Assembly (NCBI GenBank): GCA_965223205.1
Contig: CBDCWB010000009.1
Span: forward strand, 1 to 28,998
Direction: 5' to 3'
Origin: Candidatus Eiseniibacteriota bacterium
GTDB taxonomy: Bacteria; Eisenbacteria; RBG-16-71-46; CAVPCR01; CBDCWB01
DNA length: 28,998 nucleotides
Shown here: piece by piece, positions 1-27,190 of the stretch
How the letters are laid out: every line of letters starts with the position of its first letter
Position numbering within the stretch: the first letter of the stretch is position 1
Program-made: the position numbers and the translations under genes
The notes under the pieces: generated by a model
Seen by the model: the letters and a program-made list of their open reading frames with translations, nothing else
Database searches by the model: none
What the model was told of the DNA's origin: nothing

Positions 1-2658
1 GCACCACCGGATCGGCTTACGACGCCAAGGATTGGCGGGGTGTAGTGCACTCCGGCGGCTATCACCAGCAGGAAGGGTATCTGCTCTACTACGAGGGCGG
101 AGTCAAAAAGGTGCGCGGCGGTGACGGAAACCCTGCGTACCAACTCCAACACTTCCCGCTCGCGTATAACATTTTGCCGGACCACGTTATCGACGCACTG
201 GCAAAGTATTTTGCCGCAACAGGCGCATCCTTCTACGACGCCTGGCGCTACGATGTGCACATGCAGCACCTCGAACGCTGGTTGGCGTTTAAGGAAGACG
301 GCGCTGACCTCATGACAAACGACGATGACTTCAACCTGATAAACAACAACGTGCTTGGCGGCAACTACTCGCACGCCAAGTACGAGCGCGGCGCCGTGTT
401 GTTCTTCCGGCGCATGCTCAAGCACACCGGGCTGGCACTCAACGCGGTGTGGATAAACGGCATGTATAACCTCAAGAGCGGGCTTGAGGAGGGCTGGTTC
501 TACTCGGCGTACGACGCGGCGAACCAATCGATGTACCCGACGGACAACGACGACGTGCGATCGATGTTTGAAAACATCGGCAACCCGGGGCCGGGCGTCG
601 ACAGCGACCTGTTGCTGCTCGAGTACATCAACCGCTGGGGCGCCAACACCGGACACATATTGCACCTTGGCAGTGCGACCAATTGGAGCGTCAACTCACC
701 GGAGACGCAGCAGCAGGGGCTTGAGCGCGCCGTGGGCTTGCGGTTCCGGCGGGACCGCCGGTGGACCGTGGCGCGGCTGGATAGAGTCCGATCAACATGT
801 GCCGTTTTACGACGGGGACGACAATCCAGCGCACCAAATGCGCCGGTTTGCGGACTACGCCAAAGGCCCAAAGGGGCGGCGCACCGAATATCACCTGTAC
901 GCCGACCCCGGCGATGTTACGCCGACGACGCTGCGCTACTCGGGCACTGTCCCGATTTGGCTCCCAACTACAGACCTGGCGCTGGGCACGTGGTCCTATC
1001 AGTGGATTGCGCTTGATCCGGACGACGGCACGAATAACACGATCGCCGCAAAGGCGCTGGTTACCGTCGCCGACCCGGCCGAGCTTCACTATGCGCCCGA
1101 CTTGGTCGACACGCCGACGCCCGCCGAGGGCGCGACAAACCAAAGCGCTTCGGGCGTCAATCTCACGTGGGTAGCCCCCCCAGACGCCGACACGTACGAC
1201 GTGCATCTGAGCACCGATGCTGCGGACGTGGTGTCGCGCACCGCGGGCTCAAAGATCCTTGACAACTCATCTTCAACGTCGGTGAGCACCGGCGCGCTGA
1301 CCCCGGGCGCCACCTACTACTGGTCCGTAGTCGCGCGCAATGCCGGCGGCGACATTGCTAGTGCGGTGTGGATGTTTACGGTCGAGATTGGGCCGTCGGT
1401 GACCCCAGTGATAGCACCCACGATCGCGGTGCGGGCGCCCGTGGCGACGGTGACGGCTGGCGCCGTTGCAACGCAGGTGGCGGCCCCAACGATCGCCGTG
1501 CGCTCGTCACAGGCGACCGTGACGACGGGAGCCGCTCTGACCTCGGTGACCGCCCCGACCATCGCCCTCCGCGCTGGGCTCGCGACCATCGCGGTGGGCC
1601 AGGCCACAACACAGGTTACAGCCCCCACGATCGCCGTGCGGGCTCCCCAGCTGACGGTCAGCACGGGCGCGGTCGCAACTCAGGTAGCGCCCCCGACGAT
1701 CGCCGTGCGTGCTGGGGTTGCATCGGTCGCGGTTGGACAGGTCACAACTCAGGTGGCTGCCCCCACGACCGCCGTGCGCGCGCCCCAAGCCACTGTGAGC
1801 GTTGGGCCTGTGACGACCCAGGTGACGCCCCCAACCATTGCTGTGCGCGCGTCACAGGCGACCGTGACCGCCGGTGAATCTACGACCCAGGTGGTGCCCC
1901 CGACCATCGCCGTCAGAGCTCCTCTTGCCACCGTGGCGGTGGGCCAGGTGGCGACCGCCGTATTGGCCCCAACGATCGCCGTGCGGGCTCCCTCTGCCAC
2001 CGTCTCGGTGGCCGGGCAGGTCTTGACGTCTGTCAACCCACCCGCGTGCGCTGTGCGGGCGCCGGTAGCGACGGTGACCGTCGGGCAGGTGTCGGCTGCT
2101 GTCGCAGCCCCGACCATCGCCGTGCGCGTGCCGCTCCTCACCGTGACCGCCGGCGCCCCGGGCCAGACCACCATCGTCTTGTCCCCAACCATTGCTGTGC
2201 GAGCGGCGGGGGCGACCGTGTCCGTTGGTGGCGCAACGACAACCGTCAGCCCGCCGACGATCGCCGTGCGGGTGCCCCAGATTGGTGTTGCGCGGGAGTC
2301 GACGGGCGGCGGCACCACGCCCCCAGCACCAGCCACCGAGCCCAGGCTGGTGATCGCAGACCCCGGGACGTCAACCGAGCTAACGTTCCGCCAAGACCCC
2401 TCGGCCCACCTGGACTATACGATCGATTGGGTGCGCTGCCTTGAAGGCGGAGATGCAATTGCTAGCTCGACCTGGTCTATCGCCGGCGACGTGCTCGGCG
2501 TCCTGGAGATGGCTAACGACAGCCGCCTCGGCACGCGCACTACCGTCTGGCTCACTGGTGGGCTTGACGGACAGGCCTACAAGCTCGTCAATCACATGCG
2601 CACGAACGACGGGCGCGAGTTCGACCGCACCTTCTTCCTCCGGGTGGAGGAGCGATGA
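1..2658 (+). CDS. Large virion-module protein, 5'-partial (runs off the window start). The N-terminal domain is unassigned and is followed by an Fn3-like domain, an array of 13 degenerate ~23-aa repeats, and a C-terminal domain. The reading frame changes from frame 0 (ORF 45..1016) to the +1 frame (ORF 484..2658) at about nt 735-775, so this is a frameshifted gene, a sequencing indel, or a pseudogene.
   Basis: Frame 0 is protein-like from the window start to about ...ETQQQGLERAVGL and then turns Arg-rich and junk-like. Frame +1 is junk-like before nt 740 and protein-like from ...GWIESDQHVPFYDG onward. The Fn3-like segment is NLTWVAPPDADTYDVHLS...ATYYWSVVARNAGG. The repeats have consensus PTIAVRAPxATVxxGxVxTQVxA. 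The stop at 2656-2658 overlaps the next ATG (ATGA). Confidence 0.6.
1415..2295 (+). repeat. In-frame coding tandem repeat of 13 units of about 69 nt (23 aa), degenerate at both the nucleotide and amino-acid level.
   Basis: The motif ac(g/c)atcgc(c/g)gtgcg(g/c) recurs with a 69-nt period (about 1421, 1490, 1558, 1627 and onward). The peptide units are PTIAVRAPVATVTAGAVATQVAA, PTIAVRSSQATVTTGAALTSVTA, PTIALRAGLATIAVGQATTQVTA and so on, through PTIAVRVPQIGVARE. Confidence 0.85.
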
Positions 2659-3008
2659 TTTTGGGGCGCGTCTGCTGTGGCGTGCGCAGCTTGCTGCGGC
2701 GTTTGTCGGTCGTCCAGGGTCCGACAACACGGCGGCGCCCCTCCACAACAAAGCAGCCAACTACAGTGGACCAAAGAGATCAGGTGGCGATCGAGTTGAC
2801 GCGCCTAGAGGCACAGGCCCAAGCAGTGCTCACTGGTCCGCGAACAAACGATCGGGAAACCGCGGGCTTTCGCCTTGTGCGCCTCGGGGTCTTAGTGCAA
2901 CTTACGTGCCGCTGTGGAGCCAGCGGTCGAGTGATGTTGCCGCCAGCTGGCAGCACACCCTTCACCTGCCGCCGCTGTGCGAGCAATATCGAGGTAACAA
3001 CAGAGTGA
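2655..3008 (+). CDS. Small coiled-coil / zinc-ribbon protein (CxC...CxxC). The real start may be the internal GTG at 2766.
   Basis: The ATG at 2655 overlaps the upstream stop (ATGA). The C-terminal part, VDQRDQVAIELTRLEAQAQAV...LTCRCGASGRVMLPPAGSTPFTCRRCASNIEV, is protein-like with four Cys in a zinc-ribbon arrangement. The first ~35 aa are Arg-rich and may not be translated. Confidence 0.45.
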   Translation: MILGRVCCGVRSLLRRLSVVQGPTTRRRPSTTKQPTTVDQRDQVAIELTRLEAQAQAVLTGPRTNDRETAGFRLVRLGVLVQLTCRCGASGRVMLPPAGSTPFTCRRCASNIEVTTE

Positions 3009-3478
3009 TAGGCCTTTACGATATCCTGGCCCGACATGAGCGCGTTGGTGTCGCCGGATACCCCGACGTGGGCAAGACCACCGTGGCCCAGACGATCGAC
3101 GACCGACCACGCTGGAACACCGGACACCAGGGCACCGGTGGTGACGGCGATACCCCAACTGACATCGGCGTTGGCAACCTCGCCGAGTATTGGGTGGGCC
3201 GGCTGGCGGGCGAACCGCGGTTTGCCCTTGACGGGGTTTTCGTTCCGCGCGTGGCGCGCCGGTCCGTTCGCGACGGGCCGATCGTGCTCGACGCCGTCGT
3301 CTGGGTCGAGCCGCACTCGCGCTGGCACCCTGACGCCCGGCGGCGCGGCTTCCGCCGATCGATTGACACCGTCTGGGACGAGTTTCGTTGGCTCAACCAG
3401 GATCGCGGCGGCCCGATCCAGGTCTACATGGCTGGCTCGGCGGAACTCTTGGGCGGCGAGCTTACGGGGGCGGAGTGA
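3005..3478 (+). CDS. Hypothetical protein with a Walker-A-like motif (AGYPDVGKTT). It uses a GTG start.
   Basis: It is the frame-2 continuation of ORF 2441..3478, which is protein-like only from about 3005 onward. The GTG at 3005 overlaps the upstream TGA (GTGA), and a GAGGT sits 9 nt upstream. The competing frame (3036..3491) is P/S/T/R-rich and junk-like. Confidence 0.45.
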   Translation: MIGLYDILARHERVGVAGYPDVGKTTVAQTIDDRPRWNTGHQGTGGDGDTPTDIGVGNLAEYWVGRLAGEPRFALDGVFVPRVARRSVRDGPIVLDAVVWVEPHSRWHPDARRRGFRRSIDTVWDEFRWLNQDRGGPIQVYMAGSAELLGGELTGAE

Positions 3479-4713
3479 TGTATCTGATTAACGGCAAGCT
3501 GGTCGAAAACGTGCGCCAGGAGACCCTGGACGGGCGCGAGTACGTCGTCGCGCCAGTCGTGCTCCTGACAGAGGGCGTCCATTGCGGCAGTGCGGGCTGT
3601 CTCTACTACCCCGCTGTGGAGCTAGAGCGCTCCGCCGAGCGCTGGAACGGAGTTGAGCTGCCGGTCTATCACCCAGAGGGCGAGACCGCCAGGACCCCAC
3701 AAGTCATTGCACAGCAATCGGTTGGGCGATTGTTTGGCGTCCAGTACCTGGCCTCGCCGACGCCTCGGCTCCGGGGTGAGTTATGGGTTGACAAGGTCAA
3801 GGCAGAGAGAGTACACCCAGGTTTAGTAGATGCGATTGTCCAGCAATCGCATGTTGAGGTGTCAACGGGGTTGGAGGGCGATCCAATTGGTGGCCCCGGC
3901 GCATGGCGGGGTGAGCGGTACATCGCCGCGGTCGGCAACTACCAGCCGGACCACCTGGCCCTCCTGCCTGGGCAGCGGGGGGCTTGCAGTGGAGCCGATG
4001 GATGTGGGGTGTGGATGAACGACGACGGAGCCATTGACAACAAGCTTGGCGGCGCATTGCGCACAATCGCTAACGCTTTTGGGCTACTGCCGAACGGTGG
4101 GGCCGGGCAAGGTGTTGCTCGGGGCGAAGACGAGAAGGAGGACGGGATGGACACAGAACCCGGCAAGGCTGGCGCAGGGTCGGCTGAGAACGAGGAACGT
4201 TGCACCTGTGGTGCGGCGAAAAACCAGGACGACAACGCAGCCGGCCGGGAAGACTCATTGGGAGCCGGCGACGAAGCGCAGAAGGAAGGCGTTGCCGCGA
4301 CCGGGACCAAAGACGTCAGGCCCGAGGGCGACGGCGAGGAACAAAAAGCCCCCGAACAAGACAGCGAGTCGGTAACCACTGAAGATTACGTTGCGCAAGC
4401 GCCGCAGGCGGTGCGCGAGGTGCTTGAGGAAAGCCTGGCCGCGAACGCGGCCGAGAAAGATCGCCTGGTCAGGGCGATTCTCGACAATAAGCGAAACGCA
4501 TTTGCTGAAAACGACCTGCGGGCGATGCCTATTGCTAGCCTGCGAAACATCATGGCGATTAGTGATGGCGGTGTGGATTACTCCGGCGCCGCATCCGCTC
4601 CGGTGACCAGCGCAAACGCCGGCGGCTCGAAACCCGCCAAGGGCATGCCGAACTACCTCAACCAAGAGGCCACCGCGAAGCGCCTCGGGCTAAAGGAAAT
4701 GAGCAATGGGTAG
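3478..4713 (+). CDS. Putative prohead protease/scaffolding-like protein. It has an N-terminal globular domain (DUF2213-like, recalled from memory) and an acidic, low-complexity, coiled-coil-like C-terminal half.
   Basis: The ATG at 3478 overlaps the upstream TGA. The N-terminal segment is MYLINGKLVENVRQETLDGREYVVAPVVLLTEGVHCGS...VYHPEGE. The C-terminal half is rich in E, D, K, A and G (EDEKEDGMDTEPGKAGAGSAENEE...). It sits directly upstream of the decoration-like and capsid genes. Confidence 0.5.
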   Translation: MYLINGKLVENVRQETLDGREYVVAPVVLLTEGVHCGSAGCLYYPAVELERSAERWNGVELPVYHPEGETARTPQVIAQQSVGRLFGVQYLASPTPRLRGELWVDKVKAERVHPGLVDAIVQQSHVEVSTGLEGDPIGGPGAWRGERYIAAVGNYQPDHLALLPGQRGACSGADGCGVWMNDDGAIDNKLGGALRTIANAFGLLPNGGAGQGVARGEDEKEDGMDTEPGKAGAGSAENEERCTCGAAKNQDDNAAGREDSLGAGDEAQKEGVAATGTKDVRPEGDGEEQKAPEQDSESVTTEDYVAQAPQAVREVLEESLAANAAEKDRLVRAILDNKRNAFAENDLRAMPIASLRNIMAISDGGVDYSGAASAPVTSANAGGSKPAKGMPNYLNQEATAKRLGLKEMSNG

Positions 4714-5146: not shown

Positions 5147-6160
5147 GTGGAGGTGGATGAGGTGCCTTTGGGACAAGCGGGGCTAGGCCCCGTACAAATG
5201 GACGACTTGCAGGGGGGCGGTAGACTCGCTCGAGCGATCGTTGCAACGAACGGTGACACGTCGCAACTGCGCAATGACACGACGCTGCGAGAGGACGACT
5301 GGGAGCGGATTGACGAGCGCGTGGTCACCGTGGCCACAAAACGCTTGGTTGGCTCGCAAGATCTCATTGCGCGCGGGTTGATTACACCGATCGACGGCAT
5401 GCGATTTACGCACGCCAGATACGAGAGGGTCTCGCGACTCAACGAGGCCGTGATGTCGATGGACGGTCAGGTGCGCTCACCCGCCGACCGACTGGTTTTC
5501 GAGCCGGACGGCACACCGCTGCCTATCACGCACATTGACTACAACATCAACCTGCGGGCACTCGAAGAGTCCCGAAACGGCAACACGCCGCTCGACACTA
5601 CGTCACACGGCATCGCCGCAGATGAGGTTTCTCGCAAGGTCGAGAAAACTCTGTTTAACGGGGCGGGTGGCTACATGTACGGCGGCTACGCCGTGTACGG
5701 CTATACCGACTTCCCGCAGCGCGTCACGATGGGGTTTGGTGTTGGCCCATGGTCCGCGGCAGCTCGCACCGGCGAGGAGATTCTCCTCGACGTGCTCGCC
5801 TTGCTCCAGGGGGCGATCGATTCAAACAAGTTCGGCCCCTATGGGATCTACTACTCGCGAAACGCTTCGACCAAAATGGCAGAGGACTTTAAGGCGAACT
5901 CCGACAAGTCGATCCGCGAGCGCATCATGGAAACGCCGGAGCTCCAGTTTTTCAAGGCTGCGGACTACCTGGCAGACGACAATGTGGTCTTGGTTAATTT
6001 AGACCAAGATACCGTTGAGATGATCGTCGGCTTGCAGGTCACACCGTTTGAGTGGACCGACGGGCCGGGATTCCAGCTTAACTTCAAGCAAGCCGCAATC
6101 TTGGTGCCACGCCTCAAGTCTGACTACCTCGGGCAGAGCGGCGTGGTCCACATGAGCTAG
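5147..6160 (+). CDS. Major capsid protein, HK97-fold, encapsulin/linocin-like family. The start is GTG at 5147 or ATG at 5198.
   Basis: LREDDWERIDERVVTVATKRLVGSQDL...PIDG and INLRALEESRNGNTPLDTTSHGIAADEVSRKVEKTLFNGAGGY align by eye with the encapsulin N-terminal helix and E-loop/P-domain regions (T. maritima encapsulin: LTEKQWQEIDNRAREI..., [39 protein letters not shown]). A GGAGGTGG lies upstream. Confidence 0.75.
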   Translation: MEVDEVPLGQAGLGPVQMDDLQGGGRLARAIVATNGDTSQLRNDTTLREDDWERIDERVVTVATKRLVGSQDLIARGLITPIDGMRFTHARYERVSRLNEAVMSMDGQVRSPADRLVFEPDGTPLPITHIDYNINLRALEESRNGNTPLDTTSHGIAADEVSRKVEKTLFNGAGGYMYGGYAVYGYTDFPQRVTMGFGVGPWSAAARTGEEILLDVLALLQGAIDSNKFGPYGIYYSRNASTKMAEDFKANSDKSIRERIMETPELQFFKAADYLADDNVVLVNLDQDTVEMIVGLQVTPFEWTDGPGFQLNFKQAAILVPRLKSDYLGQSGVVHMS

Positions 6161-8901: not shown

Positions 8902-10008
8902 ATGTCGGCACCAAGTTCACTAGTATCGAAGCTCGGGTTCAACTTCGAGAGCGTCTACGGCGGGTCAATGACCCCTAGCGATTTCCTGTTGCAGTCACCG
9001 GGAAAGGGGTTTCGCGTCTATCCGACGCAGTATCTGCCGAGGTACCCGCAAACGCCCAACGATCGCCCTGAAGTCCGTGGCGAGGCCGAGGGGATCGACC
9101 ACACGCGAATCACGACGGGAAAAATCACGGTCTCGCACGACCTTAGTTGGGATGTCCACTATTCGGGCATCGATGCGATGCTGATCGGTGCGGCGTTCGG
9201 TAACATCACGACGACAGGGTCGGGGCCTTACGTGCACACCATTAGACCGGGGCCAACTTTGCCGTCATTCGTGGTGGGCTGGATCACGCCATACGAGACG
9301 GAACTCACGTTCGACTCCCACTTTTACAACGGGATAGTCGCAAACACGCTCACGCTTTCGCACAGCGGTGAAAGTCCGCTATCCGGGTCTCTGTCGTGTA
9401 TTGGGCGAGACTGGGCAGAGTTTTTCCCGATCCTCGTACCGACTGACACCGTGACCGAACCAGGTCTATTCCAGCTCGAGGACGTCGTTGAGTGGCACCA
9501 CATCGATCCAGCTGGTTGCATCGCGGTGTCTGCCAACGGTGGCGGCGACGTCGAGGTCACGGCCGAGAGCGTTGAGTTCACCCTCAACAACAACCTCAGC
9601 TCCCGAGCGGTCTTGGCCAAGGGCCGCTACGGAAGCAGGCCCGGGCGTGGCGGGAAGCGCGACTTCATCTTGCGCGTGAAGCTGGACAAGGACAACGCGT
9701 GGAAGACCTTCCACGATGTTTTGGGTAGCAGCTCCTCAGCGACACAGGGGCGTGGTCGCGTGTCGGTGCCCTACGTCGGCCCGGGCAATCAGAAGATGAC
9801 GGTCGTATTGCAAAACTGCCAGGTGTTGGACTTGTCCCCAACGCTAGAAAACGACGAGGAGATGGTGCCCACCGCTGAGGTGCGCGGCCACTACCTAGCT
9901 TCGGAAACAGGCGACGACCAGCTCCCGTGCATCATCACCATTGAAAATGATAGGGAAGGCCCAGGTGGGCATTCCTCGAACCCAGCCACTTTCGGCGATG
10001 CCTTCTAG
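8902..10008 (+). CDS. Major tail (tube) protein.
   Basis: A strong AGGAG RBS is present. The 368-aa protein is beta-rich. It sits immediately 5' of the chaperone and tape-measure genes, which is the canonical siphovirus order. Confidence 0.6.
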   Translation: MSAPSSLVSKLGFNFESVYGGSMTPSDFLLQSPGKGFRVYPTQYLPRYPQTPNDRPEVRGEAEGIDHTRITTGKITVSHDLSWDVHYSGIDAMLIGAAFGNITTTGSGPYVHTIRPGPTLPSFVVGWITPYETELTFDSHFYNGIVANTLTLSHSGESPLSGSLSCIGRDWAEFFPILVPTDTVTEPGLFQLEDVVEWHHIDPAGCIAVSANGGGDVEVTAESVEFTLNNNLSSRAVLAKGRYGSRPGRGGKRDFILRVKLDKDNAWKTFHDVLGSSSSATQGRGRVSVPYVGPGNQKMTVVLQNCQVLDLSPTLENDEEMVPTAEVRGHYLASETGDDQLPCIITIENDREGPGGHSSNPATFGDAF

Positions 10009-17442: not shown

Positions 17443-17756
17443 TGGCTGACAATGGGTCCTCAAAAACCAACGGAAGGTCGGTGGTGCTCAACAACTACAT
17501 CAAGGTTGTTTGGGGGTCCGTTACAGCGTTTGTGTTGTTCTTCTTTGCGGCCGACCGGTACACAGAACACAAGATAGTGACGCTTGCGCCTTACGCGCAG
17601 GAAAAACGATTGGTTGACCAGCGTTTCTCCGACATCGACCGGCGCGTTTCGGCGGTGGAGTCCAGCGCCGCTGGGATCCACTCGCAAATTGCTCTTGTTA
17701 ACCAGTCGCTGGGAGAGATAAAGGGGAAGCTCGATGTTTTCATGGATCAGAAATAG
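17442..17756 (+). CDS. Single-TM membrane protein with a C-terminal coiled coil (holin- or i-spanin-like).
   Basis: One hydrophobic helix (VVWGSVTAFVLFFFAADRY). It is followed by a heptad-like segment (LVDQRFSDIDRRVSAVESSAAGIHSQIALVNQSLGEIKGKLD). Start is coupled to 17005..17442. Confidence 0.4.
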   Translation: MADNGSSKTNGRSVVLNNYIKVVWGSVTAFVLFFFAADRYTEHKIVTLAPYAQEKRLVDQRFSDIDRRVSAVESSAAGIHSQIALVNQSLGEIKGKLDVFMDQK

Positions 17757-19527
17757 AGAGCGCTTGGTGTGTGTGTTGGTGCTGTTGTTCGTGGTGCTGC
17801 TTTGCGCGTATGGCGTCGCAACAGCAAGCCCGTCGCGCACCGAGGCCTTGCGCGCGGCCGAAACGATCCTTGAGTATTTGAGTGCGCCGGCGGACACGAC
17901 TGGCGGTGGCGGACCCGGTGGTGCCGGCGGAGGCGGTGAGCCCGACGTGCCGCGTGGGTGGCAGGCGGGGAGTACGGTGCTCTCAGCCGGAAGGGATGGT
18001 GATAGTGATGCGCGGTTGTCGGGCGCCGTCTCCCCGGTGGCGCTGGTCCAGCACCGGGCCGAGTGGCTTCTCTACTACGTCGGGTCCGAGGGCGATCGTC
18101 AGGACGACGGTGGCCCGCGGCGCCGGCGCCTCATAATCGCCACTTCGCCCGACCTAGAGAGGTGGACTAAGCGTGGCGTGGCGTTTGAGTGGCTACCCAA
18201 CGCCGCCGAGGAGGAAGCGGTCTACTCCGCTGCCATCCTCGCCGAGGGTGACGAGGTGCGGGCGTGGGTGACCGCGTGCACCCAGACGCGTGAGCCGCGG
18301 CCGGGCAGGCCGGGAGCGGTCTCCTGTGACGTGCGCTACCTCACGTCACAGGACGGCCGCCGTTTCCGCGACCGGGGCGAGGTCCTGAGTCACCGGGACC
18401 CAGGCGTCTGGGGCCACGGTGACGAGCTGTTCACCGTGGCCGCTCGCCGGCGCCCGGGCGGCGGGTTGCAGCTCTGGTACCTGGCGCGCTCTGGCACCGC
18501 CGCGCGCGAGCTGGGAGTTGCGGAGATCGACGCCGGCGGCCGGGTTGTTAGGACCGGCCCAGCGCTACCGGGCGTCGAATGGGTCGACAACGTCGAGGTC
18601 ATTGGCAACCTGGCGACAGTTGACGACAAGAGGTCAACGCGTACCACGGTCTACCGGGTGCGCCCCAACGGGCGCCTCGGCGAGCGTGTCGGCGAGTGGC
18701 GCGACCTGGGCGCGGGAGACTCGCCAAATTACTGCCTCTGGTACGACTCCGCCGGGTGGCGGATGGTGTACCGAGACGGCGAGCGGCTAAGGTGGGCCAA
18801 CGCCACTGGCACGTCAGCCAGCCAGGGCGGTGGCAGCGGGGGCGGTGGGTCCGGTGGCGGATCGTCGGGGGGCGATCCTGCCGGGCTCCGTCCCTGTGAC
18901 TGGCCGGTTGTCGGGGATGGATATTGCGTAGAGCGCGGCGGACGTCAGTGGGCAGTGCGCAAACCGGACAAGGTCCGGGACCTCGGCGACGGCGTCGTCT
19001 GGTTTGGCACTCGCAACGCCTCGTCCACCCTCGTGTGGGATCCGCCGGCGCGCTCTGGTTGGTGGGAGTGGCAAGCGTGGTACGAGCCCGGGTGCTTCCC
19101 TGCTGCGCGCGGGCGGGGCAAGCACTATCACTCGATGTTCCAGCACCGCCTTGATCTGGGCGGCCGGTACCGAGACGAACTGGACGAAATGACAGTGCTT
19201 AGGTTCGAGATCGCGGACCTGGGGACGCGCCCGCGCGGCATCGTCTGGCTATACGATGACGACTTTGCCGGGCGCGCCGAGCTGGTCATGCCCTGCGGCC
19301 AACCACCCGAGCATGGCCGCTGGTACGACTGGCGCTTTGAGTGGGCGATCGACGCTCGTGACGAACTCGTCATCCGCGTAACGCGCGACGGTGAGGAGCT
19401 TTGCGCGGGGGAGGTCGCGGTGCCCGGCGCCCAGGGCTTTGGGCAGCTCATGCCCTGGGGCCACGTCGAAGGCGTGATTGACGAGGATGCTGGGGTCCGC
19501 ATCCGCAACATGAGGTGGGGTAGATGA
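17734..19527 (+). CDS. Secreted multi-domain protein. It has a signal peptide or TM segment, a beta-propeller glycoside-hydrolase-like domain (GH43/GH32-like), a Gly/Ser linker, and a Trp-rich C-terminal beta domain.
   Basis: N-terminal MFSWIRNRERLVCVLVLLFVVLLCAYGVATASP. The motifs WLLYYVGSEGD and LIIATSPDLERWTKRGVAFEW resemble the blade motifs of 5-bladed beta-propeller glycosidases. The linker is SQGGGSGGGGSGGGSSGG. The C-terminal domain has WYDWRFEW. Confidence 0.45.
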   Translation: MFSWIRNRERLVCVLVLLFVVLLCAYGVATASPSRTEALRAAETILEYLSAPADTTGGGGPGGAGGGGEPDVPRGWQAGSTVLSAGRDGDSDARLSGAVSPVALVQHRAEWLLYYVGSEGDRQDDGGPRRRRLIIATSPDLERWTKRGVAFEWLPNAAEEEAVYSAAILAEGDEVRAWVTACTQTREPRPGRPGAVSCDVRYLTSQDGRRFRDRGEVLSHRDPGVWGHGDELFTVAARRRPGGGLQLWYLARSGTAARELGVAEIDAGGRVVRTGPALPGVEWVDNVEVIGNLATVDDKRSTRTTVYRVRPNGRLGERVGEWRDLGAGDSPNYCLWYDSAGWRMVYRDGERLRWANATGTSASQGGGSGGGGSGGGSSGGDPAGLRPCDWPVVGDGYCVERGGRQWAVRKPDKVRDLGDGVVWFGTRNASSTLVWDPPARSGWWEWQAWYEPGCFPAARGRGKHYHSMFQHRLDLGGRYRDELDEMTVLRFEIADLGTRPRGIVWLYDDDFAGRAELVMPCGQPPEHGRWYDWRFEWAIDARDELVIRVTRDGEELCAGEVAVPGAQGFGQLMPWGHVEGVIDEDAGVRIRNMRWGR

Positions 19528-20446: not shown

Positions 20447-20757
20447 GGGCGCTACTCTGGGTGTTGCTCTGCCTCGCCCTTTGCCCCCAAGCCGAAGCGC
20501 ACCAACCGCCTAGTTGGGTACCCGTGGCCTATGGCAAGCTGTCGGCGACGCTCCCCATCATCCGCCTAGACGACAAGGATCGGATGCCCGGCGCACGCGC
20601 AACCTTCGGTCTCGAGTGGACCAAGCTCGGCAGCCGCTATTTCGTGACCGCCGAGTATCACCGCAACTTCGAGCAACTCAGTGGCGGGCGTGTGTGGCCG
20701 TGGCTAGACGCGGTTGAGGTGGGAGTGGGGTGGTACTTCTTGGATCCGGAAAGCTAA
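20443..20757 (+). CDS. Small secreted protein with an N-terminal signal peptide.
   Basis: The sequence begins MRALLWVLLCLALCPQAEA followed by a mature part. The ORF-track start at 19939 is rejected because 19939..20442 is Arg-rich overlap junk. Confidence 0.55.
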   Translation: MRALLWVLLCLALCPQAEAHQPPSWVPVAYGKLSATLPIIRLDDKDRMPGARATFGLEWTKLGSRYFVTAEYHRNFEQLSGGRVWPWLDAVEVGVGWYFLDPES

Positions 20758-21035
20758 AAACGAACGCCATATATCTGTGTTATGAATATTGTCCTCTCGT
20801 CTTCGCCGAATTTGTAAGAACACCCCCAGAAGCACCTCGCCCCGTTCGCGTCGATCTCGAATCGGAAGTCGGGCCGGCCCAGGTGTGTCGTTCCGCGCCT
20901 CGGACTTGATGCCAGCCGATGCAATGCAGACTCGACGCCGTCTAGCGCGGCGTCTTGGCACTCGTCGGGCAGGTTGTTCACCAGTTCGCGAAGCCCATTC
21001 TTGGCTGTATCAGTGATTCTGAGCTCGTAGCTCAT
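20754..21035 (-). CDS. RelE/ParE-superfamily-like toxin (93 aa).
   Basis: By-eye alignment to E. coli RelE: ...LASSPRRGTTHLGRPDFRFEID... against ...LESPRIEANKLRGMPDCYKIKL..., and ...ARCFWGCSYKFGEDERTIFITQIYG against ...YRLVYQVIDEKVVVFVISVG. It overlaps the upstream Panacea-like gene by 26 nt. The locus is lower-GC. Confidence 0.55.
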   Translation of the reverse strand: MSYELRITDTAKNGLRELVNNLPDECQDAALDGVESALHRLASSPRRGTTHLGRPDFRFEIDANGARCFWGCSYKFGEDERTIFITQIYGVRF

Positions 21036-21588
21036 TCATCACATCTGCGAGAGGCTGGCTCCTGCCCGCCTCTACGTCCGCTTCCCCAGCGAGCATGCTT
21101 GACAGACTGAAGCCCGAGTGCTTGCGAGCCGCGTTGTCAACGATGTGCATCGGCACATTCTCCTTTGGGCTCGCCTGGAGCATTGGCTCTGTCTTGTAGA
21201 CGACTTCTTCGCAGACGTACCTCGCGGACATGTTGAGATACGTTTCGCCAACGTAGCTCAAGACCTCTTGTTCTTCCACCGTGAAGTCGTCGTACGTCGA
21301 CTTCAGTGGTCGCAGGTCGTGCGCAGCGTATTGGCCGCATGAGACTTGGTTGTCCGCAACAAAGCCTTTGTTAGTTAGCTCTGAGAGCGCCTTATAGAAC
21401 CGCCTCGAATCAAACGGACCAAAGTCATCGTAAATGTACGTGAAAGACGATATGGGCACACCGCGATAACGGCGGGACTCCAGGTCGGCTAGGTAGACGA
21501 ACTTCGCCAACAGCGTGTGTCCGATTCCTGGGGCAATCTGCAGAAGATACAATAGTACCCGCGCATCGCGGCTGAGTTCATCAGGCAT
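21010..21588 (-). CDS. Panacea-domain (DUF4065)-like protein, the putative antitoxin partner (PanA-like). The start is the ATG at 21588, downstream of the ORF-track start.
   Basis: LLAKFVYLADLESRRYRGVPISSFTYIYDDFGPFDSRRFYKAL resembles the DUF4065 core (KLQKLLYxAQ...G.PLF...F.AW.YGPV....Y). An AAGGGGAAG RBS lies 5' of the ATG at 21588. Its 3' end overlaps the small toxin-like ORF. Confidence 0.5.
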   Translation of the reverse strand: MPDELSRDARVLLYLLQIAPGIGHTLLAKFVYLADLESRRYRGVPISSFTYIYDDFGPFDSRRFYKALSELTNKGFVADNQVSCGQYAAHDLRPLKSTYDDFTVEEQEVLSYVGETYLNMSARYVCEEVVYKTEPMLQASPKENVPMHIVDNAARKHSGFSLSSMLAGEADVEAGRSQPLADVMNELRAQNH

Positions 21589-21843
21589 CTTCTTCCCCTT
21601 CCGTTCCCAAGGCAAGTGTTCCAGTTCAGGTAACGGCGACCGCAACCACCAGCTTAACATGCAGACTACACAAAAGATGCGGTCTTGGTTTCACATTGTA
21701 AGGAGAAAACCGACCAGCTCCGGAGTCTGGTGGCTGCAACCAGCACTCCCCGGCCGGTTATCCAGCCTATCCATAGTAGCATCCCCCCTGCACTACACTC
21801 CGCCACCAGCAAAGGACGTACTCCTCAACCGTCGGACCCCACA
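21589..21843. promoter_or_regulatory. Divergent promoter/operator region between the Panacea-like operon (-) and the XRE regulator (+).
   Basis: A 255-nt non-coding gap between divergently oriented starts. It is lower in GC than the flanking genes. No motif was assigned with confidence. Confidence 0.4.
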
Positions 21844-22143
21844 ATGCCCGCTCGACAGATGCGCAGGAGGCGCGGCGACGCCAATCGTCGGCGCCAGTTT
21901 GGCGTTTGGCTCCGGGAGTGCCGGATCCAGGCCGGCTTGACCCAGGGCGAAGCCGCCGAAGCGATTGGGGGGACGTGCACCCGGTCGACTGTGTACCGCT
22001 GGGAGACGGGACGCCACGCTCCGCCGATCAACGTCATGGTGGCGCTCAAGCGGCTGTACGGGTTCGAGTGGAGCGAGGTCGAGGAGATGGCGCAGTTTCT
22101 CCCGATGCGAGACGACGCCGGGAAGAAGCGGGGCAGCGCCTAG
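21844..22143 (+). CDS. XRE-family HTH transcriptional regulator (99 aa).
   Basis: FGVWLRECRIQAGLTQGEAAEAIGGTCTRSTVYRWETGRHAPPINVMVALKRLYG is a classic Cro/C1-type HTH. No clear SD is present. It is convergent with the HEPN-like gene and overlaps it by 4 nt. Confidence 0.65.
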   Translation: MPARQMRRRRGDANRRRQFGVWLRECRIQAGLTQGEAAEAIGGTCTRSTVYRWETGRHAPPINVMVALKRLYGFEWSEVEEMAQFLPMRDDAGKKRGSA

Positions 22144-22604
22144 CTCTTTCCTTTGGCGGCTTTCTCGGGATCCATGGGCTCGTTTGGTATTAGCGCGAGC
22201 GAAACTTCGTCGATCGTCTTGTCGCAGATCTCGTCGAGCGTGGCTCTCAGGTCCTTGATCGCTTGCTTCATGAGAGCCAGGTTGTCCATTTTCCTGTCGC
22301 AATAGTCCTTCTGAGCGCCCTCAGTGATGTACAGGTTTGAGTGCACCACCTCGTTGCGCCGCTTCGCCATATCCTCGGCGCCTGGGATCGGGAGACACCT
22401 TTCCACGTCGCCGAGCGTTTTCTTGACGATGTCCTTGTCGGTCAGGCCCCTGGTGTCTTTGCGCATCATTAGATGCAATTTCATCGCTCGCTCAACAGCG
22501 ACGTACGCCAGCAGCGCTGCGGCGTATGGATACTTGCAGCGTAGCTCGCCGATGGCCTCAATTGTCTTTCTTTCAGCTTCTTGCATTCGTGTCCTTCGTT
22601 CCAT
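22140..22604 (-). CDS. HEPN-like protein (putative RNase fold) carrying an Rx4-6H motif.
   Basis: The motif AKRRNEVVHSNLY reads R-N-x3-H. The rest is an all-alpha composition. The start at 22604 has a GAGGA 5 nt upstream. It overlaps the 3' end of the GxxExxY gene by 32 nt. Confidence 0.45.
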   Translation of the reverse strand: MERRTRMQEAERKTIEAIGELRCKYPYAAALLAYVAVERAMKLHLMMRKDTRGLTDKDIVKKTLGDVERCLPIPGAEDMAKRRNEVVHSNLYITEGAQKDYCDRKMDNLALMKQAIKDLRATLDEICDKTIDEVSLALIPNEPMDPEKAAKGKS

Positions 22605-22983
22605 TTGTATCCTCGCTAGGGCGGTCAACGCCCTGGAAATCCGGTGCATCCTTGTCCGGATACGGAAAGTTCACCAGCACGCCCGAGGGGATCCCGATCG
22701 TTTTGAGGTAGGAGCGTAGCTGTGCGACGTGCGACTTACTAAGGCTGGCGGCAGCCTTCAGCTCGACCACGACTTTCCCATCGACGACGAAGTCGAGTTT
22801 GTGGATGCCCACCTTGCGGTTCTTGTAGAACACTTCGGTGGTTCTCTCGATCTCGTAGTTGATCCCGCGCAGCCCGAACTCCACGGCCATCGCCTCTTCA
22901 TAGACGACCTCGGCGTAGCCACCGCGCAACTCAGAGTAGACTTCGCAGGCGCAATCCTTGATTGTTTCTTGCAAGGTGCTCAT
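22573..22983 (-). CDS. GxxExxY family protein (PD-(D/E)xK nuclease-like fold).
   Basis: LRGGYAEVVYEEAMAVEFGLRGINYEIE...VGIHKLDFVVDGKVVVELKAAASLSKSHVAQLRSYLKTIGIPSGVLVNF matches the family signature (G.GF.E.VYE.AL..EL...G.......YK...VG.YR.D.LVE..IVELKA.....H.AQL.NYLK..G...GLLINF). Confidence 0.75.
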   Translation of the reverse strand: MSTLQETIKDCACEVYSELRGGYAEVVYEEAMAVEFGLRGINYEIERTTEVFYKNRKVGIHKLDFVVDGKVVVELKAAASLSKSHVAQLRSYLKTIGIPSGVLVNFPYPDKDAPDFQGVDRPSEDTNGTKDTNARS

Positions 22984-23009
22984 GGCAGTTCTTCTTTCCT
23001 GGGACACCG

Positions 23010-23606
23010 CTACATCAACTGATAGCTGCAACTTGTGCATGAAAATTCATGTGCAGAGTTCGTGGCGGCGCACTTTGGGCACGTCCATGGCTGGGCATCG
23101 CCCGAAGCGATCCATGGTTTGGCTGACGAAGCCGAAATCGCCTGATCCTTGTATGCGCCTACACCATACTGCACAGCAGCAATCAGCACGCACACCACGA
23201 GAAAGCGCCACAACCACGCGGTCCACTGTTCTGGCTTCCTTGTTGTTGGCTTCGTTGGTACCCCAATCGATCGAACGTGTTCAACACTAACCCAGACCAG
23301 TTTTCCCGCGTGTTTGCCCTCTAGTACGCGTACCTCACGTGACCACCACCCGTCACGACTTATCGGATTGCATGGCGTGCCGCTCGGAACACGAAAAACA
23401 ACGCCGCTGCTTAGTAGCTGTTTAACCCCAAGGTCATCGTCAGCCGCCAGAAACTGCCCGAGGCGATCGAGAGCGGCCTTAGAAGTTGCTGCAAACACGA
23501 GCTCTGAGTTCGCTCTTAGGCAATACTCTGCCCCCGCAGTTCCCTCTTGCTGGCCGGCAACTCCCATGAGAAACACCGTGGCTATCAGGCGGTTTGTTGT
23601 GCGCAT
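23010..23606 (-). CDS. Membrane protein. It has an N-terminal hydrophobic/signal segment, a soluble middle domain, an internal TM helix, and a C-terminal zinc ribbon (zf-ribbon_3-like).
   Basis: N-terminal MRTTNRLIATVFLMGVAG. Internal TM helix WTAWLWRFLVVCVLIAAVQYGVGAY. C-terminal WTCPKCAATNSAHEFSCTSCSYQL. An AGGGG RBS sits 5 nt before the ATG at 23606. It starts 8 nt after the TPR gene stop and ends 27 nt before the GxxExxY start. Confidence 0.55.
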   Translation of the reverse strand: MRTTNRLIATVFLMGVAGQQEGTAGAEYCLRANSELVFAATSKAALDRLGQFLAADDDLGVKQLLSSGVVFRVPSGTPCNPISRDGWWSREVRVLEGKHAGKLVWVSVEHVRSIGVPTKPTTRKPEQWTAWLWRFLVVCVLIAAVQYGVGAYKDQAISASSAKPWIASGDAQPWTCPKCAATNSAHEFSCTSCSYQLM

Positions 23607-23614
23607 TACGGCCC

Positions 23615-24844
23615 CTATCTCACTTGACGTTGAGTCTCTTCCACCTCCCAAACATCCCCGACCTCCCGAAATCCAGAAAGCGCTGCTTCAAAGTGTTGCT
23701 TCGCATCGTCGGCGCCGCCCAACGCCTGGAGCGCCACCGCGATGGCGCGGTGCGCGGCGGCGACCTCGAGCGGATCCTCGAGCATCTCGGCCCGGTCGCG
23801 GGCCGCTCGAGCCATGTGTAGCGCGCGGCGGTGGTCGCCCATTGCATTGTAGCAGTCGGCTTGGAGCCGTGTGCACTCCGGCCAGGTGTCACTGCGCGGT
23901 GATGGGTCCAGCTCGATGGCTCGGAGGAAGAGCCGGATGGCGACTTTGGGGCGCCCCTGGTCAGCGATGATGCGGCCCAGGTAGGCGATGCAGATGGAGT
24001 GCTGGCGCGGCCGGCCGTGCTTGATCGCTACACGAGCGCCGTCAATGGCTAGCTGCCTTGCGGCGCAAAGCGCGCCGGTCCTGCGCAGCGCTTCTGCACA
24101 GACAGCCTTTGTGCTTGCTGTTAGTGCGGCGAAACCTCGCGCTTTTGCCGACTGCTCTGCCGACTTGGCCACCTCAATGGCGTCCTCATGTCTGCCGAGG
24201 TGCATGCAACACACTGCGTGGTTGACCGCGGCGGCGATGTCGCTTTGCGGTGCGGTTGCGGCGGTCTGTGAGGCGGCGGCCGCGAGAATCTCCAAACCAC
24301 GCTCGAACCTTCGCATTCGAATTGCGATGCGTGCCCGTGCCCTGGCGGCGCCGACAGACTCCGTGTGCTGTTCGAGGTTGGCGTAGAGAGCACTCGCCGC
24401 CTCGAGCGCAGAGTCAGCTGCGGTTAGATCGCGATTGACGGATGCGAGCTTTGCCTTTGCCAGGAGCAGCTCGGCGGTCGCAACCATCGCGCTCGCCGCA
24501 TTTGCTACCGCGATCGCGTTCGCAAGATGCTCTTCAGCGTCTTCGATGGCCCCTGCTTCGCAGGCCACGCGCGACGACAGTGCGTGCGCTCGCGCAATCT
24601 CAGACGCGTCGACGCCGGCGAACAAGGAGCACAGCTCGGCCGCGGCGTCGCGTGCCTCATGGATCTGTCCAAATTGGAGAAGTGAGTGAACAAGCTGTAG
24701 GAGGCAGAAGTGGCGCGACGAGATGCCGAGGCTATTGTCCCTCAGTTGGTACTTGTAGCGCAGAACGGCTGCTCTGGGGTCTTCGGAGGGCGTGGCCACG
24801 GTGAGGTCGTCGACAATGGGATCGCAACCGCCCACCGTGGCCAT
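23615..24844 (-). CDS. TPR-repeat (all-alpha) protein of 409 aa with no recognisable HTH.
   Basis: Many Ala-rich helical hairpin repeats (...AIEVAKSAEQSAKARGFAA...AIRLFLRAIELDP...). A GGGAGG RBS is present. Start is 12 nt downstream of the small peptide gene. Confidence 0.6.
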   Translation of the reverse strand: MATVGGCDPIVDDLTVATPSEDPRAAVLRYKYQLRDNSLGISSRHFCLLQLVHSLLQFGQIHEARDAAAELCSLFAGVDASEIARAHALSSRVACEAGAIEDAEEHLANAIAVANAASAMVATAELLLAKAKLASVNRDLTAADSALEAASALYANLEQHTESVGAARARARIAIRMRRFERGLEILAAAASQTAATAPQSDIAAAVNHAVCCMHLGRHEDAIEVAKSAEQSAKARGFAALTASTKAVCAEALRRTGALCAARQLAIDGARVAIKHGRPRQHSICIAYLGRIIADQGRPKVAIRLFLRAIELDPSPRSDTWPECTRLQADCYNAMGDHRRALHMARAARDRAEMLEDPLEVAAAHRAIAVALQALGGADDAKQHFEAALSGFREVGDVWEVEETQRQVR

Positions 24845-25063: not shown

Positions 25064-25219
25064 TTTCAACTCCCAGGAACTTGGGGCACTCTGGCGCCCG
25101 GGCCGTCTTGGCTTGGCCCTTCCTTGGGTGCGATTCGCGTTGTACGGCGCAGATCCAAGCTAGCAAGTTTCTAGCGGGCAGGCAATAGGTTGTGCCGAAA
25201 GCCGTTCCCCGGAGGCTCG
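25064..25219. promoter_or_regulatory. Divergent lysogeny-control intergenic region. It contains the inverted repeat GCTAG-N7-CTAGC (25159-25175), a candidate operator.
   Basis: 156-nt gap between the peptide/TPR operon (-) and the tandem-HTH regulator (+). The repeat is gctagcaagtttctagc. Confidence 0.35.
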
Positions 25220-25753
25220 ATGCGCGACAGGGTGTCGCTACTACACGCACAGGGAGTGCGAAAAACCGTCGGCGAGTGGCTTAAGTGGCTCCGGTTGAAT
25301 AGCGGCCTCCGGTTGCCACGCCAGGCACAGCAGCTTGGAATCGAGGAGTCCGTGTTGCGGGATCTCGAAGAGGATCGGGCCGAGCCGAGCGCGAGCATTG
25401 CGCTGCGGCTTGCTGACTTCTACCGGCTCTCGGAGCGAGAGCTTAGGATCGTGTTCGGCGTGCCGCGCGGCATCGACGTCGATCCTCCTCTACTGCATAC
25501 ACGCACAGAAACCGCTACAATCGAGTCCATGGACCAAGTGGACCACATAGGAACTGCGATCAGGGAGGGGCGTGATCGTGCCGGCCTTACTCAGCAGCAA
25601 GTTGCCGAGATGATCGGAGCCTACAGACCCGACCTCTCCGACTGGGAGCGAGGCGAGCGCACTCCCAGTGCCGTTACCCTCCTGCGACTCGCCCGAGCGT
25701 TACGACTCGACCTCAATCGCCTCGCCCGAAGATTCTCGCTTGACAAAACGTAG
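25220..25753 (+). CDS. Tandem-HTH (2x XRE-type) transcriptional regulator, candidate prophage repressor.
   Basis: A GGAGG sits 4 nt upstream of the ATG. HTH 1 is LKWLRLNSGLRLPRQAQQLGIEESVLRDLEED. HTH 2 is IREGRDRAGLTQQQVAEMIGAYRPDLSDWERGERTPS. It is divergent from the peptide/TPR operon and lies 5' of xis-int. Confidence 0.65.
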   Translation: MRDRVSLLHAQGVRKTVGEWLKWLRLNSGLRLPRQAQQLGIEESVLRDLEEDRAEPSASIALRLADFYRLSERELRIVFGVPRGIDVDPPLLHTRTETATIESMDQVDHIGTAIREGRDRAGLTQQQVAEMIGAYRPDLSDWERGERTPSAVTLLRLARALRLDLNRLARRFSLDKT

Positions 25754-26089: not shown

Positions 26090-27190
26090 ATGACCGTGAA
26101 GGTCCGGCCGTACCGTCGGGGTGGTTGGGAGGTGGATCTCAGGGTAGTGCTGCCAGACGGCAGCGAGTTTCGTGAGCGTCGCAAATCACCGCTAACGTCG
26201 CGAGAGGGATCGCGGCGGTGGGGTGAGGCTCGCGAGCGAGAGTTGGTTCGTCGGGGCTTTCGGCCCCGGCGCAACGTCAAGACGCTTGGGGGGTTCGCGG
26301 AGATGTATCTCGAGTACATGGCGAGCAATCGTTGCAAGCCTAGCTACATCGACGCGCACCGCAAGTTGATCGCGGCTCACCTTAGCCCGCTGCTCGGGCA
26401 GGTCAGGCTCGATGCCATCGACCAGCCGGCAGTGGAGCGGCTCAAGGCACGACTTTCGGGTCGGGCGGCGAGTACGACCAACAACGCGCTGATCTGCCTG
26501 AGTGCAGTGCTGCGCGCTGCTGTGGCGCTTGGTGAGTTGGGTGAGGCTCCCTGCGTCATTAAGCACGTGCGGTCGGTCGAGGCGGATGAAGTGGCGTTCT
26601 ACGACGTCGCAGACTACGCCCGACTAGTGTCGGCAGCGCGGGAGCAGGATCCGCGCACCCATCTCGTGGTGTTGCTGGGTGGGCGTGCGGGGCTCAGGTC
26701 CGGGGAGATGATCGCTCTCCGCTGGGACCGCGTTGACTTCCGTCGCCGGCAGATCGCGGTGACGAGCTCGTCATGGAGGGGTGTGGAGACGGCGGCCAAG
26801 AGTCGCCGGAAGCGCATCATCCCGCTGGCACAGTCGCTGTTGGATGCGTTGCGTGCTCATCAGCACCTGCGCAGTCGCTACGTCCTTTGTAGTGAGGACG
26901 GGGCGCCGATAGGCTACTACAAGATGCGAGGGTTGATCCGTCGCGCTTGCAAGCTTGCCGGTGTCGAGTTTCGTGGGGTGCACGTGCTGCGCCACACGTG
27001 TTGTTCGCACCTCGCCATGGCGGGGGTGCCTGTGCGTGTGATCCAGGAGATTGCCGGCCATCGGCAGCTGGCGACCACGCAGAGGTACATGCACTTGTCT
27101 CCTTCGCGCGTCGACGACGGCATCCGAGTGATGGATGCTCTTGGAGACGCTTGGGAGACGCAATCTACGGAGAGCTGCAAGTCGTGTTAG
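26090..27190 (+). CDS. int: Tyrosine recombinase / phage integrase.
   Basis: An AGGAGGG RBS is present. The C-terminal catalytic signature ...LRHTCCSHLAMAGVPVRVIQEIAGHRQLATTQRYMHL shows the H-x-x-R ... Y pattern. The N-terminal region is a core-binding domain. Confidence 0.85.
   Translation: MTVKVRPYRRGGWEVDLRVVLPDGSEFRERRKSPLTSREGSRRWGEARERELVRRGFRPRRNVKTLGGFAEMYLEYMASNRCKPSYIDAHRKLIAAHLSPLLGQVRLDAIDQPAVERLKARLSGRAASTTNNALICLSAVLRAAVALGELGEAPCVIKHVRSVEADEVAFYDVADYARLVSAAREQDPRTHLVVLLGGRAGLRSGEMIALRWDRVDFRRRQIAVTSSSWRGVETAAKSRRKRIIPLAQSLLDALRAHQHLRSRYVLCSEDGAPIGYYKMRGLIRRACKLAGVEFRGVHVLRHTCCSHLAMAGVPVRVIQEIAGHRQLATTQRYMHLSPSRVDDGIRVMDALGDAWETQSTESCKSC

Follow-up and report, generated by a model that had tools for sequence, protein, structure and literature searches.

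Does a 93-amino-acid (aa) open reading frame (ORF) that overlaps a Panacea-type gene in a prophage of Candidatus Eiseniibacteriota encode the toxin of a toxin-antitoxin (TA) pair, and which part of its partner would hold such a toxin in check? The locus lies on contig CBDCWB010000009.1 (assembly GCA_965223205.1), whose 28,998 nucleotides (nt) were analysed as a whole and are referred to here as the window. A sequence-only reading had proposed a PanA-PanT-type, antitoxin-first type II TA candidate, and this core proposal is supported by a domain match, a predicted fold, and the conserved co-occurrence of the two genes. We consider it fairly probable that panA-panT is a two-gene type II TA module carried as accessory cargo of a temperate phage or prophage, with a ParE-like toxin that would be neutralised by the C-terminal tail of PanA. 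The locus consists of the following elements:

21010..21588, minus strand: panA, 192-aa antitoxin with a Panacea (DUF4065) core and a C-terminal tail
21139..21579, minus strand: Panacea core of PanA, residues about 3-150, globular and winged-helix-like
21013..21138, minus strand: PanA residues 151-192, the C-terminal tail with two predicted helices and a proposed role in neutralising the toxin
20754..21035, minus strand: panT, 93-aa toxin candidate of the ParE/RelE superfamily (BECR fold), divergent within its own family
21010..21035, minus strand: overlap of 26 nt between the end of panA and the start of panT, read directly from the sequence
21589..21843, no strand: intergenic region of 255 nt, presumably containing the panAT promoter
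21844..22143, plus strand: XRE-family helix-turn-helix (HTH) gene, divergent from panAT (Pfam HTH_31 55.3 bits, HTH_3 44.2 bits), probably outside the module

All three ORFs, their coordinates, the gene overlap, and the length of the intergenic region were verified in the sequence, as were the motifs KFVYLADLE, YIYDDFGPF, and FYKAL. For panA, the gene caller chose a longer ORF of 216 aa, reaching position 21660. We favour the 192-aa start because the homologues, which are mostly of this length, share the same start point, and because a purine-rich GGAAGGGGAAGAAG lies directly 5' of its ATG. The overlap between the two genes implies that their translation may be coupled.

The Panacea antitoxin and its overlapping partner

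The assignment of PanA to the DUF4065/Panacea domain was confirmed by a profile search, in which residues 27-125 matched the Pfam family SocA_Panacea (PF13274) with 35.5 bits, above the gathering cut-off of 25.7. The AlphaFold2 (AF2) model of the protein has a predicted local distance difference test (pLDDT) score of 84, and about 20 homologues with 47%-56% identity were found. G57-P58-F59-D60 is invariant in an alignment of 20 members of this PanA clade, which thus has GPF and not GPV. We take G57-P58-F59 as the counterpart of the published GPV signature, the hallmark of Panacea domains that was reported to be critical for neutralisation (PMC8832971). PHROGs, PADLOC, and NCBIfam contained no match for PanA or the window toxin.

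The window and 30 fetched loci were searched with hidden Markov models (HMMs) of the PanA core, the PanA tail, and the toxin. The order core, tail, toxin is found in the window and in L001/L002, L003/L004/L008, L007, L016, L026-L028, L029, and L030, and according to the gene calls an identical 26-nt overlap is present in L001/L002, L003, and L026-L028. Directly downstream of more distant PanA genes (~30% protein identity), which come from Brocadia, Scalindua, and other Planctomycetota, a diverged toxin-family gene is again found (L009, L010, L012, L015, L017, and L018). The flanking genes are unrelated between loci and include DarT/Macro, ATP synthase/NUDIX/YajQ, HNH, amino-acid kinase, PhoU, POR, RTC, and IS1595 transposase genes; wholly different flanks around a conserved pair are the signature of a mobile two-gene module. 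PanA and the toxin co-occur in most loci and across phyla, and relatives repeat the layout with PanA first and an overlapping toxin gene that the sequence-only reading had named as canonical for type II pairs.

The association is not uniform. In L005/L006 (downstream of 4627 and 902, respectively) and in L011 (3560-3718), PanA is intact but the toxin gene next to it is degraded; in L005 this gene starts MSFDLVVSDEAA before the frame is lost, and in L011 a 52-aa remnant is left. In these orphan-PanA loci, the antitoxin has persisted longer than the toxin. Two loci have a small gene convergent to PanA, an arrangement that is unusual for a type II pair: in L013 (3570-3988, minus strand) it is a toxin-family gene, partly masked, and in L019 (3621-3893, minus strand) a divergent 90-aa ParE/RelE-looking ORF. 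L014 encodes a 90-aa partner similar to that of L019 in the usual orientation, and in L021 the PanA partner is an unrelated 136-aa protein. The toxin-family HMM gave no match in L014, L019, and L020. Annotated phage and plasmid collections contained no match to the panAT clade, nor did a scan of viral contigs, and a metagenome scan added two loci only.

A C-terminal tail that accompanies the toxin

The tail of PanA is strongly conserved (F.LERMLAGEAS..AGR.RP...VM.ELR), and in the AF2 model it has a low pLDDT (54-68) and two predicted helices (residues 162-173 and 180-190). These three features fit a toxin-specific neutralising peptide that would fold on binding. The distribution of the tail points in the same direction, as it is also found without the Panacea core. 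A 109-aa protein without the core but with the PanA tail (E 1e-11 against positions 151-191 of the PanA profile; 48% identity over 33 residues to the window PanA) is encoded upstream of the toxin-family member P0072, whose gene it overlaps by 29 nt; P0072 was detected in many samples, on 24 contigs or more. This tail-only partner and the same toxin family occur together in loci L022-L025. The tail thus accompanies the toxin even where there is no core, and in the distant PanA clade it diverges in step with the toxin. The tail HMM detected no tail in L021, where the partner is the unrelated 136-aa protein, and none in L014, L019, and L020, where the toxin HMM is likewise without a match. We infer that the tail, and not the Panacea domain, is probably what recognises and neutralises the toxin.

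Some observations weaken this interpretation. The tail matches no Pfam family and no PDB sequence, ParD included. A likeness between the tail and ParD scored -2.3 with an HMM, a value that was equalled or beaten by 101 of 200 shuffled sequences. Furthermore, although many samples contain the tail-only partner, it represents a single sequence lineage and might be what a deletion left behind. As a candidate identity for the tail, the C-terminal segment of ParD, which it resembles by eye, was rejected after the PDB search without a match and an hhalign comparison to ParD3 that gave a probability of 0.3%.

A precedent for such an arrangement is the PanA of C. doosanense, whose Panacea core is followed by a two-helix Phd-C element that is enough to neutralise Doc, also as a tail fused to SUMO, a mode of action termed 'linear neutralisation' (Ernits et al. 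2023, PMC10440598). Both proteins have a Panacea core followed by two toxin-specific C-terminal helices, and the neutralising element that works without Panacea in C. doosanense has its natural counterpart here in the tail-only 109-aa partner. In contrast, the tail described here has another sequence, for which neither Pfam nor the PDB gave a sequence match, and its predicted binding partner is a toxin with a ParE-like fold and not one of the Fic/Doc type. We tentatively raise the possibility, without favouring it, that this tail of ~40 residues (F.LERMLAGEAS..AGR.RP...VM.ELR) is an undescribed portable neutraliser of ParE-fold toxins, used either fused to Panacea or on a minimal protein; the fused Panacea domain might then serve as the sensor of a trigger, and the prophage pair might act as a switch for abortive infection or superinfection defence and not as a plain addiction module.

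As a separate observation, the neighbours of the tail-only pair in L022-L025 (about 200-4120 in locus coordinates) are a HipA_2 gene, a DUF3037 gene, an AbiJ_NTD4 protein gene, an integrase gene, and a gene for a 271-aa weakly proteasome-like protein. This island, present in many samples, looks like a defence or TA island.

Proposed mode of action and relation to known Panacea systems

In the proposed mechanism, the upstream and translationally coupled panA would yield a modular antitoxin that consists of the globular Panacea core and the two-helix tail of ~40 residues. The free tail would be disordered and would fold onto the toxin and block it by linear neutralisation, leaving the core as an accessory domain with a function as sensor or in stability. 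Loss or triggering of PanA would free the toxin and growth would stop. The freed toxin would most likely poison DNA gyrase as ParE does, with mRNA cleavage as the less likely outcome. Binding of PanA to the toxin, toxicity, and the cellular target are all part of what we infer here.

The PanA-PanT pairs tested previously form complexes, and their neutralisation does not require ClpXP or Lon (PMC8832971). In that study, Panacea was found to pair with dozens of toxin folds, prophages included, and ParE was named among the PanA-associated toxin domains (Kurata et al. 2022, PMC8832971). Its Dataset S1 lists several PanA-first overlapping pairs whose toxins have HHpred matches to HigB, YoeB, ParE, and RelE, all of them marked 'notest'. 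A PanA with a ParE/RelE-fold partner is therefore no new kind of pairing, as clusters of PanA with ParE/RelE/HigB-fold toxins (such as T14, T28, and T60) were already listed there. The pair in the window resembles these clusters in having Panacea first, a small overlapping ParE/RelE-fold toxin, a prophage or mobile context, and a GP(V/F) signature motif. It differs in its origin, the clade having been found in uncultured environmental bacteria of high GC content and on a phage contig, although it may coincide with one of the Dataset S1 clusters.

What the present analysis adds is modest: a clade limited to uncultured bacteria, and comparative evidence suggesting that an exchangeable tail, rather than Panacea, is matched to the toxin. 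Since pairs of PanA with ParE/RelE-fold toxins have so far been listed bioinformatically only, the clade offers a natural comparison between PanA with core and tail, a partner reduced to the tail, and orphan PanA genes next to a decayed toxin gene. This comparison bears on the question raised by the Panacea papers of whether Panacea itself neutralises or is a sensor on an exchangeable neutralising peptide.

An alternative role for PanA would be that of a proteolytic adaptor as in the type VI system SocAB, handing the toxin over to ClpXP instead of sequestering it. SocB is a different kind of toxin, which is not known to have the ParE/RelE fold; the window toxin has this fold and gave no SocB match. 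SocA does carry the same Panacea domain (PMC8832971), but the PanA antitoxins tested in that work form complexes with their toxins and neutralise them without ClpXP or Lon, and one partner of the toxin family studied here is the tail-only protein, which has no Panacea domain at all. We consider adaptor-mediated degradation highly improbable.

A divergent branch of the ParE/RelE superfamily

When the window toxin was used as the sole query of a word-index search, only the toxin itself was returned, and a record look-up found nothing; its relatives were reached via the genes downstream of the PanA homologues. A profile built from four of these genes recovered ~54 proteins, several of which carry the JGI label ParE. 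With ~54 homologues and a confident predicted fold, we regard the small ORF as a real gene and not a chance ORF. An exhaustive search with the toxin profile gave only 99 representative clusters, indicating that the toxin clade is small. The matches of six very long proteins (P0106, P0112, P0119, P0124, P0161, and P0167), each with 4-14 stretches matching the toxin profile, look spurious and were set aside; P0119, the only one inspected, consists of Ig-like tandem repeats.

The assignment of the toxin to the RelE/ParE families holds at the level of the family and of the fold. Pfam ParE_toxin (PF05016) was matched by 38 of 51 close family members at E<=0.1 (best 6.7e-5) and by 28 of 80 members of the wider clade at E<=0.01 (best 7.5e-10). 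The window toxin was modelled with confidence as a beta-alpha-alpha-beta-beta-beta fold, which can be superposed on solved structures of ParE/RelE toxins. Taken singly, however, the window protein stays below the Pfam cut-off (14.6 vs. 23 bits; E 0.049; match confined to the N-terminal half), a result that counts against its being a ParE-like toxin. The toxin family profile had no significant ParE/RelE match among PDB sequences; the top hits were spurious helical proteins, and ParE and RelE chains were tied below the threshold at an E of about 0.2.

Gyrase or mRNA as the predicted target

The sequence-only reading had described the toxin as RelE-like. Membership in the ParE/RelE superfamily fold stands, whereas a RelE-type activity is doubtful, as geometry, isoelectric point (pI), and missing lysines lean towards ParE. 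The Pfam match is indecisive on this point because PF05016 spans both activities, including a cluster of mRNA-cleaving proteins (PMC11980606). Structural discriminators have been proposed: compared with RelE, ParE toxins have longer N-terminal helices and lack the C-terminal helix on which RelE catalysis depends (Girardin & Loris 2025, bioRxiv 10.1101/2025.07.24.666505). In the model of the window toxin, helices 9-20 and 24-43 form a long hairpin of the ParE kind, within which E. coli RelE shows an 8-residue gap in a low-confidence alignment. Only three residues follow the last strand (82-90), compared with 16 in E. coli RelE, and the members of the toxin family end 3-6 residues past this strand; there is no C-terminal helix, and the helix of RelE with the activity-essential R81 and Y87 is absent from the window toxin. 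As counterparts of the RelE-type catalytic residues K52/K54/R61, the exposed beta2 positions 58, 60, and 62, identified by strand register and not by superposition, are variable in the family and show no conserved K/R pair.

The charge of the proteins points the same way. The window toxin has a pI of 5.61 and a charge of -2.3, and the family median pI is 5.73, vs. a pI of 9.67 and a charge of +6.5 for E. coli RelE and a pI of 8.9 for Caulobacter ParE1 (the two reference sequences having been verified with the PDB). The strongly basic character expected of a RelE-type A-site binder is thus not found in this acidic toxin family. TM-scores are highest for ParE chains (0.64-0.70, vs. 0.62 for RelE and 0.48-0.50 for YoeB). 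In addition, the tip of the hairpin is conserved in the toxin family (S21-L22-P23 and R27) and is located where VcParE2 contacts gyrase (bioRxiv 10.1101/2025.07.24.666505). The hhalign probabilities of the toxin family against E. coli RelE (1.3%) and Caulobacter ParE1 (1.5%) are uninformative, and the partner is a Panacea protein and not the ParD or PaaA2 antitoxin typical of ParE.

Other features speak for a ribosome-dependent mRNA endonuclease of the RelE type in an otherwise identical module. Foldseek E-values place RelE2 (Rv2866), YoeB, and E. coli RelE above ParE. The residues R54 (51/51), H69 (47/51), H87 (48/51), and R/K90 (47/51), often with H51, are conserved on the beta-sheet of the family, and R54, H69, H87, and R/K90 could form an RNase site; these sheet residues are reminiscent of the His/Arg sites of YoeB and YafQ. 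Such an activity would also agree with the mRNA-cleaving cluster in PF05016 and with the tied, sub-threshold profile matches to ParE and RelE chains. We consider a RelE-type toxin somewhat unlikely, and ParE-style gyrase poisoning is placed ahead of mRNA cleavage, if not by much.

In contrast to ParD-ParE and PaaA2-ParE2 (6xrw, 5czf, 3kxe, 5ceg), the antitoxin lacks a ribbon-helix-helix domain and its tail has no detectable similarity to ParD, and the toxin family is acidic and ends directly after the last strand, with gyrase poisoning as its predicted activity. With RelBE, YefM-YoeB, and DinJ-YafQ it shares the BECR-fold superfamily, the first ranks by Foldseek E-value, and conserved His/Arg residues on the sheet, but it differs from them in having no C-terminal helix and no K52/K54-type lysines, in its acidic pI, and in its longer helical hairpin. 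The target cannot be read from the sequence, and this toxin branch would be useful for mapping the functional boundary between ParE and RelE.

The window copy as a family outlier

The toxin of the window is itself an outlier. Its mean identity to the family is 41%, vs. 59% among the other members, and of 32 positions with a conservation of >=90% in the other members, it retains 20 (62%; the others keep 96% on average, with a minimum of 77%), the lowest value among the 51 members. It also carries the substitutions R27Q, H69F, and H87Q, and a glycine at position 90, which is mostly R/K. These differences tell against a fully active module in the window, whose toxin may be attenuated or non-toxic or may represent a deep, still functional branch. 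A decaying or domesticated copy, in which the toxin is inactive and the pair survives as a neutral relic or in the role of an anti-addiction antitoxin, would have parallels in the orphan PanA genes with degraded toxin genes in L005/L006 and L011. However, the toxin ORF in the window is intact, retains the hydrophobic core and all invariant residues, and yields a confident model, and both the 26-nt overlap and the PanA tail are preserved. The window PanA is a divergent lineage, too, with 81% of conserved positions retained, and the copy may simply be a deep branch. We judge decay or domestication unlikely.

The divergent XRE gene and the intergenic region

The sequence-only reading had further suggested that the XRE gene may regulate panAT and that the locus as a whole is clearly lower in guanine-cytosine (GC) content than its surroundings. 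A low GC content was confirmed for panT (56.0%), the intergenic region (56.1%), and panA (54.9%, which places it among the lowest 1.2% of stretches of its size), compared with a window mean of 61.7%. It does not extend to the XRE gene (68.3%), and the entire span 20754-22143 is only at the 21st percentile.

A three-component system with the XRE protein as the dedicated regulator, similar to paaR-paaA-parE, could be envisaged since the gene is adjacent and divergent across the 255-nt intergenic region, the PanA clade has no separate DNA-binding domain recognised by Pfam, and three-gene TA systems with a regulator exist (PMC8832971). As in paaR-paaA-parE (Hallez et al. 2010, cited in PMC8832971), a ParE-fold toxin would have the gene of an HTH regulator nearby. 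Here, however, the XRE gene is divergent and not co-transcribed, and it is missing from all homologous loci: neither an XRE homologue nor any other HTH gene was found next to PanA in ~15 other distinct loci. Its GC content is also ~13 percentage points away from that of panAT (55%-56%, a range shared by the intergenic region). The intergenic region (21589-21843) contains no match to the sigma-70 consensus and only weak repeats of 8-12 nt, none of them convincingly operator-like, and the Panacea core is itself winged-helix-like and could autoregulate. A dedicated XRE regulator is thus improbable, and the gene was rejected as a module component on the grounds of conservation and GC content. It is probably a context gene outside the two-gene module, with a local regulatory link possible but unsupported. 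A second XRE protein, with two HTH domains, is encoded at 25190-25753 (plus strand) directly upstream of the integrase gene and is the likelier lysogeny regulator of the two.

Prophage setting and neighbouring genes

The prophage context was borne out by structural and integration genes on the contig:

5147-6160: HK97-type capsid protein
8902-10008: tail tube protein
26090-27190, plus strand: tyrosine integrase

The contig also carries long tail genes, and panAT is situated in an accessory block between the tail and lysogeny genes; a search of the contig found no tRNA gene. Beyond the interest of the PanA tail and the toxin branch, the locus is ordinary prophage cargo. The final large gene before the low-GC accessory block is a 597-aa ORF (17734-19527, plus strand) with Gly-rich linkers and a GC content of 67%-72%, for which a Pfam search gave no match. 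On the other side, the stop codon of a 169-aa ORF (22140-22649, minus strand) overlaps that of the convergent XRE gene. The encoded protein has an RNEVVH (Rx4H) motif of the HEPN type and a faint match to Pfam HEPN_Cthe2314 (E 0.077), and it may be another toxin or defence gene of the same low-GC block. Its 5' end is overlapped by a gene for a GxxExxY/PDDEXK_3 nuclease-fold protein (22573-23040, minus strand; E 1e-30), and a 213-aa ORF at 23010-23651 encodes a C-terminal CxxC...CxxC motif. Together, the GxxExxY gene and the 213-aa ORF form a block of 55%-56% GC, with which the panAT island reaches as far as about 23.65 kb.

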